This document shows, one piece after another, positions 46,683-49,304 of a stretch of DNA of 64,000 bases. The position numbers and the translations under genes were made by a program. The notes beneath the pieces are model-generated. The model saw only the letters and a list, made by a program, of their open reading frames with translations. It was not told the DNA's origin and searched no databases. Numbering within the stretch: the stretch's first letter is position 1; each line of letters opens with the position of its first letter. This DNA is from Octopus vulgaris (taxonomy: Eukaryota): positions 172,236,001-172,300,000 of the forward strand of contig OX597814.1 of the NCBI GenBank assembly GCA_951406725.2. Direction: 5' to 3'.

Positions 46683-46871
46683 TTATATAATTAGGGCTTA
46701 GTAAAATAAAATTACTTTGCCACATACTGAACTTAGTAGAAATAGCAGCCCAAAAAATTTTTTTTTAGCATTTCTACTACTTAAAGAAAATTTCTCTCAG
46801 ATAATGTTTACTCCAGACAGCTCACGAAGGTTTGGGGTAAATACAGAAAAATATCACAAGTACATAGATCG

Positions 46872-46934
46872 TTTGAGTACGTCAACGTTTCAAGATTAGC
46901 CAAATAAAATCAGCATTTCTTTCGTCAGCTCAAA
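46872..46934 (-). ncRNA. Canonical type I hammerhead ribozyme (left arm)
   Basis: Reverse complement of 47692-47754. Confidence 0.85.
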
Positions 46935-47691
46935 ATTTCTTAATTTGGATTTGGAAACACTAAAAGAAGGAACTTTACCTATCAGCGAACTTGTCGTTTC
47001 AGATGAACCACTCCAACTAAACAGTGTCAACAAATTCAAAATGCGCAGGCGTAAAATTCTGCACTCCCCATTCCACCCACGTGGTCTATCTAGCAAACAT
47101 TATATTTTAACCGCGAGAACCGAGGCAGTATGACCGAGAGAAATGAATTATAATATCAACAATTGAGGGTAAAATTAATTAATTAATCAATTTCACCAAG
47201 TGTTCAGTATGTAAAAGGACCATTTAAGGCGAATTCAAAATATTACATTATATAATTAGGGCTAAGTAAAATAAAATTACTTTGCCACATACTGAACTTA
47301 GTAGAAATAGCAGCCAAAAAAAATTTTTCTTAGCATTTCTACTACTTAAAGAAAATTTCTCTCAGATAAGCCCTAATTATATAATTTTGAATTCGCCTTA
47401 AATTATCCTTTTACATACTGAACACTTGGTGAAATTGATTAATTAATTAATTTTACCCTCAATTGTTGATATTATAATTAATTTCTCTCGGTCATACTGC
47501 CTCGGTTCTCGCGGTTAAAATATAATGTTTGCTAGATAGACCACGTGGGTGGAATGGGGAGTGCAGAATTTTACGCCTGCGCATTTTGAATTTGTTGACA
47601 CTGTTTAGTTGGAGTGGTTCATCTGAAACGACAAGTTCGCTGATAGGTAAAGTTCCTTCTTTTTAGTGTTTCCAAATCCAAATTAAGAAAT

Positions 47692-47754
47692 TTTGAGCTG
47701 ACGAAAGAAATGCTGATTTTATTTGGCTAATCTTGAAACGTTGACGTACTCAAA
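47692..47754 (+). ncRNA. Canonical type I hammerhead ribozyme (right arm)
   Basis: tttgag CTGACGA aaga...tctt GAAA cgt-tg-acg TA ctcaaa. Confidence 0.87.
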
Positions 47755-49304
47755 CGATCTATGTACTTGTGATATTTTTCTGTATTTACCCCCAAACCTT
47801 CGTGAGCTGTCTGGAGTAAACATTATTTGAGAGAAATTTTCTTTAAGTAGTAGAAATGCTAAGAAAAAATTTTTTTTGGCTGCTATTTCTACTAAGTTCA
47901 GTATGTGGCAAAGTAATTTTATTTTACTAAGCCCTAATTATATAATGTAATATTTTGAATTCGCCTTAAATGGTCCTTTTACATACTGAACACTTGGTGA
48001 AATTGATTAATTAATTAATTTTACCCTCAATTGTTGATATATATATATATATATATATATATATATATATATATATATATATATATATATATATATATAT
48101 ATATATATATATATATATATATATATATATATATATATATATATATATATATATATATATATATATACATATATATATACATAGGTTTATATATAATGTT
48201 ATGGGACACATTCACATAAGCAGTTCTTACTTCTATAAAAATGCAAGTTAGACTAATACATAAATGGATTTACACAGGTAGATAGAAACAACGAAATATA
48301 GATATATATGTACAGATGATGCAAATATATTAATGCTGATATAGAATATAAAATTATCGTCATATCGATGAAACTTAAGGAAGTAGAAGAAAAGGGAGAA
48401 GAAAAAAATACAATTCAATAATCATTTATACTTTCTGCTTTATTTTCATCTTTACTTATCTTTTCGTATTTTTATGTATGTTTTTATTTCGCTTTTACGT
48501 TTGCTTGCTGGCATTTTCTCGACCGGTGAGAGAATACTGGAGTAGAACTATGCTTCGCTGATGGACTTTTCACGGTTCACTTCCTAGCCGTCTGGGAGCA
48601 GCTAGCGTTAAAATGAAGGCACTCGTTCTAATCAAAGTTAAGCGAAGCTATTTCACGGTATTGCTTAGATTAGATTGATATTTTCGGTATTGCAGTATTT
48701 TAAAAATATATGAATTCAAGCGAGTTGTGGGGAAAGAAAGCATTACTTGCTCTGTATTGAAATGAATAAGCTAAAGAATATATAGATAAACAAATAAATC
48801 AGTAAATAAATAAACAAATATATAAAATATATTACAGGATCTATAGAATTCTTAGTATGATATTGTATCATTGAAATAGTAATTTTAGCTTTGGCACGAG
48901 TAAACAAATTTGGAGGAGGGTGGATATAGACGATTAGATTGATCTCAGCATTTGCAGACTGGCACTCGTATTATTGACCTCTTCCACCTCCCACTGGAAG
49001 GATTGGTTATAGAATTTGTAATGACAGAATATGAACATAGATCGTAAACGGACGTAAATAAATAACACAAAATATACCGTCAAGCTCTCTGGTGAATTCT
49101 ACCTATGTACCGGAGTTTGTTTCGCCTTTCTACTAATTCCATAATTTTTCCACCATTTTCCTACCAGTTCTGCCAAGCTACCGTTACCTTGTGCATCGTT
49201 CTACCAAGTCTATCAATCCACCGCCGTTTTTTCGTTGCTCTAGCAATATTGCAAACCTTACCGCATGAATAACAGTAACAGTAATGGTTTACAATATGTT
49301 GTTG

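Follow-up and report, generated by a model that had tools for sequence, protein, structure and literature searches.

The question raised by this locus is how two inverted copies of one short repeat unit came to be joined within a TA microsatellite, and by what machinery. The locus is located in a 64-kb window of Octopus vulgaris DNA (the whole stretch that was analysed) and consists of two inverted copies of a non-coding hammerhead unit of approximately 567 nucleotides. From left to right it is composed of a (TA)n target flank (46522..46682), a left arm on the reverse strand (46683..47369), a right arm on the forward strand (47370..48040), and a second (TA)n target flank (48037..48195). The left arm is 687 nucleotides in length, or 1.2 units of 565 nucleotides, with its 5' end at 47369 and a tail-less 3' end at 46683, at what is termed here the proximal site. 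The right arm is 671 nucleotides in length, or 1.2 units of 568 nucleotides, and carries a tail that ends at the distal site. The arms are 98% alike; their 561-column alignment shows 6 substitutions and 3 gap positions. Read in the sense of the hammerhead, the arms diverge, their 5' ends joined and their 3' ends running into (TA)n. A preliminary description of the same DNA had given a unit of ~566 nucleotides, two near-identical arms of ~1.2 units, and outer ends that merge into (TA)n, all of which agree with the measurements above. It had called the arms back-to-back arrays; two inverted arms are indeed present, and the wording is corrected here to arms joined 5' to 5'.

The inversion junction contains a 3-nucleotide microhomology, TAA (47367..47369). 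The first 16 nucleotides of the right arm (47370..47385, forward strand) are the same as the last 16 of the left arm, as expected from the earlier remark that the right arm opens with the ending of the left, and a 7-nucleotide deletion follows them. The left edge of this deletion falls exactly at the end point of the left arm. A 126-nucleotide repeat is present in three copies at the locus, which differ at 2–5 places; the two copies in the left arm differ at 5 of 126. A target-site duplication is unreadable inside the (TA)n flanks. Since each arm stops at its own position within the unit, matched terminal inverted repeats are lacking, and a MITE or DNA transposon was rejected on this ground. 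The locus is a young, well-preserved insertion with an already known architecture, the layout itself being published and common. An RNA read through the locus could possibly form a duplex between the arms; the predicted fold contains 568 inter-arm pairs (about 570 bp, in place of the ~670 bp suggested previously), to which the TA flanks could contribute.

The unit has a GC content of 32.9%. With the unit circularised, the longest frame in the sense direction is 46 codons, and this limit, together with the lack of any Penelope-type domain, rules out a hidden ORF. The unit folds better than its shuffles (z −5.4). Its family-specific part is a predicted rod-like domain with the hammerhead (47480..47838, forward strand), delimited by the fold and by a contig depth below that of the shared segment. 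The structured 3' segment (47864..48040, forward strand; fold z −4.3), which includes both putative priming sites, continues to the equivalent of 47489, and loose contig ends occur at 47864 and at 47489. The far higher contig depth of this segment and the loose ends at its borders indicate that it is common to more abundant sister families. It is likely the enzyme-binding part of the unit. The 5' end of the left arm lies about 12–15 nucleotides inside a long predicted stem. At 47628 and its left-arm counterpart 46997, both arms have an A where all contigs aligned there, in four of four runs, have a G. Position 47827 is a T in the right arm and a C in both left copies, and approximately one fifth of the contig depth there is non-C in the three larger runs.

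Each arm contains one type I hammerhead motif, as reported in the preliminary description. The left motif (46872..46934, reverse strand) has CTGACGA at 46928 and a predicted cut after 46878; the right motif (47692..47754, forward strand) has CTGACGA at 47698 and a predicted cut after 47748. Both have a 6 bp stem I, a stem II of 4 bp with an extension, GAAA, a GUA site, and a stem III of 2 bp beyond the A-U pair (2+1). No equally strict motif arose when the unit was dinucleotide-shuffled 2000 times. A relaxed scan of the window returned 8 matches, where 100 shuffles gave 0.02 on average and never more than 1; one of the 8, at 15158 (forward strand), is a weak hammerhead-like match. Searched with Rfam, the window contains no hammerhead at the gathering score, and the region 46600–48100 gave chance matches only, and no hammerhead, down to E = 10. 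The metazoan type I form, as outlined in PMC4209133, has the core CUGANGA, GAAA, and NUH, a helix I of ~6 bp, a helix II of ~4 bp, and a short helix III; the hammerhead of the unit has this core and these helix lengths (6, 4, and 2+1 bp, with GUA). The same source describes the G10.1-C11.1 pair that closes helix II as highly conserved, and helix II of the unit closes with A-U instead. The hammerhead fold has a free energy of −9.7 kcal/mol versus −10.0 kcal/mol for the local minimum, 0.3 kcal/mol above it, with a z of 0.01. In the hammerhead of a diverged relative at 55630 (reverse strand), four of the six stem I pairs are changed on both sides and are thus compensatory, a comparison made with one relative only, which itself has a 1-nucleotide defect at the base of stem II. 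In its core, U3-A8 replaces C3-G8, a natural covariation (PMC3088659, from the part of that work consulted). Stem III and loop 3 of the right-arm hammerhead are self-complementary, with two G-U pairs, and judged from its sequence this hammerhead could work as a dimer. Approximately 50 nucleotides 5' of the hammerhead, at 47643–47665 (forward strand), a GTAAAG word follows AG and is itself followed by a pyrimidine run and AG, an arrangement that by eye resembles splice sites. Introns are often present in Penelope terminal repeats.

The 3' ends of the two arms are two recurring ends of the family, 95 nucleotides apart and both at TA-like tracts. The proximal site (47939..47946, forward strand) is the longest alternating TA run of the unit and the end point both of the left arm and of the relative at 55395. 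The one-sided tail (47946..48040, forward strand) is 95 nucleotides long, contains a 13-bp hairpin, and finishes at the distal site. Among the matches listed, 14 contigs of run X2 have a loose end that enters (AT)n at the equivalent of 47472, a recurrence of the distal end, and 4 contigs of run X4 have a further end approximately 16 nucleotides before the proximal site. The arms end at two of the four places in the 568-nucleotide unit that have an alternating TA run of at least 4, one of them being the longest, and the strict overlap of the arm ends with the target is only 2 and 4 nucleotides; the TA microhomology claimed earlier is upheld to this extent. The ends had also been taken as free permutation points of a circle. 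They are instead two recurring ends of the family, seen in the relative within the window and in contigs of another run, and the same pair of proximal end and tail end is found in all four two-armed hammerhead elements of the window. The sequence CCCTAA lies a few bases before several 3' ends (47930–47941, 55395–55406, and 26815–26825), other ends having CCCT or CCTTAA only, and this may be due to chance. CCCTAA is complementary to the telomere repeat TTAGGG.

Five related hammerhead insertions lie within the one window. In addition to the main locus, three two-armed hammerhead elements are located between (TA)n tracts (727–981, 26508–26834, and 42776–43681). In each of the four, one arm stops at a proximal site and the other extends 69, 86, 108, or 95 nucleotides beyond it, and the tailed arm starts 16 to ~120 nucleotides upstream of a proximal site. 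Only at 42776–43681 and at the main locus, where there is a second copy of the unit, is the tail proven to be part of the element; at 727 and 26508 it is seen once. The element at 42776–43681 has a 490-nucleotide unit and is composed of 1.4 units in the forward orientation and a 226-nucleotide inverted arm. Its hammerhead, at 43462, has a 62-nucleotide stem II region, its arm ends are 108 nucleotides apart, and the 5' end of its inverted arm is approximately 17 nucleotides past the predicted cut site. It shares a TTGGCTGCT motif, upstream of the proximal end, with the main locus. The tiny element at 727–981 contains two tandem 47-nucleotide hammerhead units on the reverse strand and one inverted copy, with (TA)n on both sides, a near-palindromic junction, and a probable 69-nucleotide tail. 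The element at 26508–26834 has a minimal hammerhead (26656, reverse strand), a 210-nucleotide arm, and a 117-nucleotide inverted arm with a probable 86-nucleotide tail, again with (TA)n on both sides.

The remaining insertion is the diverged, one-armed relative at 55395–55753 (reverse strand), which lies between (TA)n tracts and aligns with a score of 188, compared with a shuffle maximum of 148. Like the left arm, it terminates in (TA)n at a 12-mer common to both, and the distance from its end to its own hammerhead site is 183 nucleotides versus 198 at the main locus. Two other (TA)n-flanked segments (10201–10330 and 27068–27231) contain a CTGANGA word on the reverse strand with no full hammerhead in the scan, and are perhaps decayed relatives. 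A 199-nucleotide unit in two tandem copies (11138–11536), 96% alike, likewise gave no hammerhead in the scan.

Of the 24 listed public sequencing runs, 20 carry the stretch in whole or in part, from 8 studies with four organism labels; contigs from four of the 24 were aligned to 47310–47952 (for runs X1 and X2, 76–80% of the contigs were read). Contig 1 of run X1 is 94 nucleotides long with a depth of 19.5, covers 47342–47435 with no differences, and links the inversion point, the 7-nucleotide deletion, and a 2-nucleotide variant. It has 28 letters to the left of the junction, 3 under the 31-letter bridging rule, and run X1 may be the source sample of the assembly from which the window is taken; the contig thus supports the junction as far as read words go, and does not represent a second individual. 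In each of the three larger runs, 1355–3630 contigs align to the unit and joints of unit end to unit start are present, these contigs being too short to show whole unit dimers. Three other contig joints have one side at 47366–47368, and two more lie 10–20 nucleotides away; with short sides of 21–29 letters, these five can be read only weakly as further 5'-to-5' junctions. One more joint, 47334–47873, was set aside as a likely product of a reference sequence that contained 60 nucleotides of the left arm.

An assembly artefact, in which a high-copy repeat was joined as an inverted chimera between two TA tracts, had been named at the outset as one outcome that would undo the description. Loci of such a kind are known to trouble assemblies (Craig 2021, PMC8557442, in the part consulted), no contig among the matches listed for the four runs spans the whole locus, and the exact match to the junction has the short side noted above. 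An artefact is nevertheless very improbable: that exact contig joins three copy-specific features, the two arms are non-identical, and the same layout is present in three other families of the window. The inverted two-arm structure at the locus is real.

The unit resembles non-LTR retrozymes in being a non-coding, low-GC (33%) repeat, apparently arranged head to tail, with one type I hammerhead. Its 567 nucleotides exceed the 170–400 nucleotides given for animal non-LTR retrozymes in the portions consulted of Cervera and de la Pena (2020, PMC7229834), but lie within the 51–972 nucleotides given in those of Li, Clavereau and Pollet (2026, bioRxiv 10.64898/2026.07.22.740005). The latter define active retrozymes by at least two consecutive hammerhead-bearing units in tandem; unlike these, the locus has one hammerhead per arm and no two hammerhead units in tandem. 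Both works propose that retrozymes derive, as non-autonomous forms, from Penelope-like elements, a link that in Li 2026, as far as its text was available, is based on co-occurrence and sequence trees. The word "inverted" is absent from the main text of PMC7229834, no description of the anatomy of insertion ends was found in the accessible part of Li 2026, and, judged by titles and abstract openings, no paper was found that reports Penelope-type ends on retrozymes. The full set of Penelope-type insertion marks on a retrozyme-like unit supports the link by anatomy.

These marks can be compared with published Penelope-like insertions, which are described in the sections consulted of Craig 2021 (PMC8557442), Arkhipova 2013 (PMC3846280), and Goubert 2022 (PMC8969392) as having a copy that is inverted and 5'-truncated, together with a tail confined to one end. 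The locus likewise combines an inverted copy, 5'-truncated and joined 5' to 5', with a tail at a single end, a hammerhead near the 3' end, and a short overlap with microhomology at the junction. It sits in a (TA)n microsatellite, the target preferred by the Hydra clade, for which hammerheads are also described, and by Naiad (PMC8557442, same sections). It differs in that the unit has no ORF and is a short fixed repeat rather than a truncated coding element, in that its tail is 95 nucleotides long compared with the 30–40 nucleotides given for Penelope-like tails in the literature sampled, and in that both arms exceed one unit. No ORF with a reverse transcriptase and GIY-YIG domain is present in the unit, and no Penelope-type domain was detected in 15 scanned frames (12 picked from the 100 frames of the window and 3 from the unit); the scanned frames of the window likewise contain no partner ORF. 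Penelope-like elements make up 6.83% of the O. vulgaris assembly according to the part of PMC13282606 consulted, and for Octopus the supplement of Craig 2021 (PMC8557442) includes families of both Hydra and Naiad. Compared by eye, the unit and the 3' end of Hydra-1_Obim are different. Four motifs of the unit are absent from the text of that supplement and two shorter ones match only unrelated-looking places, although line-wrapped FASTA can hide matches. Taken together, the unit is very probably a non-autonomous, retrozyme-like retroelement moved by the reverse transcriptase and endonuclease of a (TA)n-targeting Penelope-like element. That this partner is of the Hydra kind is our best guess.

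The origin of the tandem and inverted structures and of the microsatellite bias is unexplained according to Craig 2021 (PMC8557442, main part). For the present locus, the reading that we somewhat favour is twin priming, with one RNA as the template of both arms and one insertion event. Both arms exceed one unit in length and cross a hammerhead cut site, so the template would have been an uncut multimer or a re-ligated circle; this agrees with the multimeric or circular template, and with the priming from both TA target ends, that the preliminary description had suggested. A cleaved linear monomer is excluded as template by the same feature. In the proposed sequence of steps, the enzyme would cut both strands within the (TA)n tract, and the two free 3' ends would serve as primers on a single template, either an uncut RNA with a length of at least 2.4 units or a circle. 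One of them would prime at the distal site and copy the tail and one unit, while the other would prime at a proximal site located one unit further upstream. Synthesis of the first cDNA would halt at the second primer, leaving the 7-nucleotide gap and the 16-nucleotide overlap, that of the second would stop in a long RNA stem, and the two cDNA ends would join through TAA. The junction has the features expected of twin priming: the 7-nucleotide deletion, the 16-nucleotide overlap, and the TAA microhomology. The right arm starts within 19 nucleotides of the end of the left arm, a coincidence with a chance of ~6% on a 567-nucleotide circle by simple arithmetic. The rare A shared by both arms at 47628/46997 points to one source for both, although it could mark a small subfamily that is missing from the contigs. 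Against twin priming, the coincidence of start and end is near exact in only one of the four elements, the distances in the others being 31, ~68, and ~120 nucleotides; short arms would be expected in any case; and the copies of the unit are non-identical, as the 5 differences between the left-arm copies show. The T/C difference at 47827 also argues against a single RNA.

The same 5'-to-5' geometry would be produced if each cut end had been extended on its own RNA and the two 5'-truncated cDNAs were then joined by microhomology, the match between start and end being due to chance. The 6 substitutions between the arms fit this alternative, as does the difference at 47827, where the non-C fraction of the contig depth means that both letters may be alleles of the family. 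It accounts poorly for the rare A common to both arms and for a deletion edge exactly on the end of the left arm, and it does not require the one tailed and one tail-less arm present in four of four elements; we regard it as rather unlikely. Within the single-RNA reading, roughly a third of the weight falls on a template that was a monomeric, re-ligated circle of 567 nucleotides, copied 1.2 times by each of two primers, which taken by itself is a minor possibility. Arms that exceed one unit and cross an intact cut site would result, the contigs join unit end to unit start, and circles have been shown for coral, mussel, and axolotl retrozymes (PMC7229834, in the portions consulted). Such a circle predicts identical copies, in contrast to the 126-nucleotide repeat, one of whose differences is apparently a family allele. 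The hammerhead fold lying above the local minimum also counts against this variant, and only one of nine Xenopus dimers was cut in vitro in the available part of Li 2026 (bioRxiv 10.64898/2026.07.22.740005). Fold-back self-priming, in which a single cDNA folds back and copies itself, has been proposed for palindromic Penelope junctions (Arkhipova 2013, PMC3846280, relevant passages); the junction at 727–981 is near-palindromic, and the 16-nucleotide piece at the main locus could be a short templated copy. The junction of the main locus is non-palindromic, with 142 nucleotides between the mirrored arms. Had the left arm been copied, the product would stop at the proximal site, without the outer 95-nucleotide tail, and the right arm has only ~220 nucleotides downstream of the start of the left arm, from which 687 nucleotides cannot be templated. 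Fold-back is improbable here, and as the whole explanation it is incompatible with the observed arm lengths.

Twin priming as described for L1, in which synthesis of the first cDNA ends close to the second primer, with small deletions or duplications as a result (bioRxiv 10.1101/2024.08.27.596794, in the part consulted), resembles the proposed event in the use of both target ends on one RNA, the 5' inversion, the small deletion and duplication, and the join by microhomology. The present locus differs in having no poly(A) and in a second primer that would be placed at a fixed site of the family on a multi-unit RNA rather than at a chance internal match. The PAc/Poseidon protein of the anole offers an enzymatic parallel. 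According to the sections consulted of Frangieh 2024 (PMC11167929), it cuts and extends both strands at AT-rich DNA in vitro, with uncut RNA as its template and with two internal start sites that mark the limits of the tail; the protein is a predicted dimer. Priming on both strands, two start sites bounding a tail, and an uncut RNA template are likewise proposed here. The start sites of the anole element are within the ORF and have no homology to the target, in contrast to the TA-like tracts of a non-coding unit at which this locus ends, and no twin priming is proposed in those sections. A search that covered few subscription journals found no paper that pairs Penelope with "twin-priming", and one review that mentions both terms.

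We tentatively suggest, at less than even confidence, that twin priming may be programmed: a dimeric enzyme would use both DNA ends from a single cut, on one multi-unit or circular RNA, at two start sites that are fixed and target-like. The tail would then be the distance between the sites, the tailed arm would be stopped by the other primer, and the inverted, one-tailed insertions of Penelope-like elements and retrozymes would be explained, with the collision recorded at this locus to the nucleotide. Short, high-copy units with two fixed ends make twin priming testable by counting copies in one genome. The family, with copies only ~1–2% apart here, would allow such a test genome-wide.

The surrounding window is AT-rich animal DNA, dense in microsatellites and repeat debris. 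A scan of viral contigs for the pattern of the unit gave 0 matches, and the sole match of the pattern scan, in metagenome contig L001 (1–5359), was rejected as a chance 22 nucleotides in unrelated DNA; across the six reading frames of this contig, no stop-free stretch exceeds 141 codons. Remnants of Tc1/mariner transposase and non-LTR retrotransposon frames are located at 23641–24442, 25888–26322, 13285–14459, and 16357–17506, with a Pfam score above the cut-off only for a Tc3-type HTH frame and weak scores for the others. The repeat at 50121–50192 resembles an octopus SINE. Further inverted repeat pairs, 70–230 nucleotides in length, are located at 33369–34978, 9118–11006, 39321–39615, and 40970–41516.
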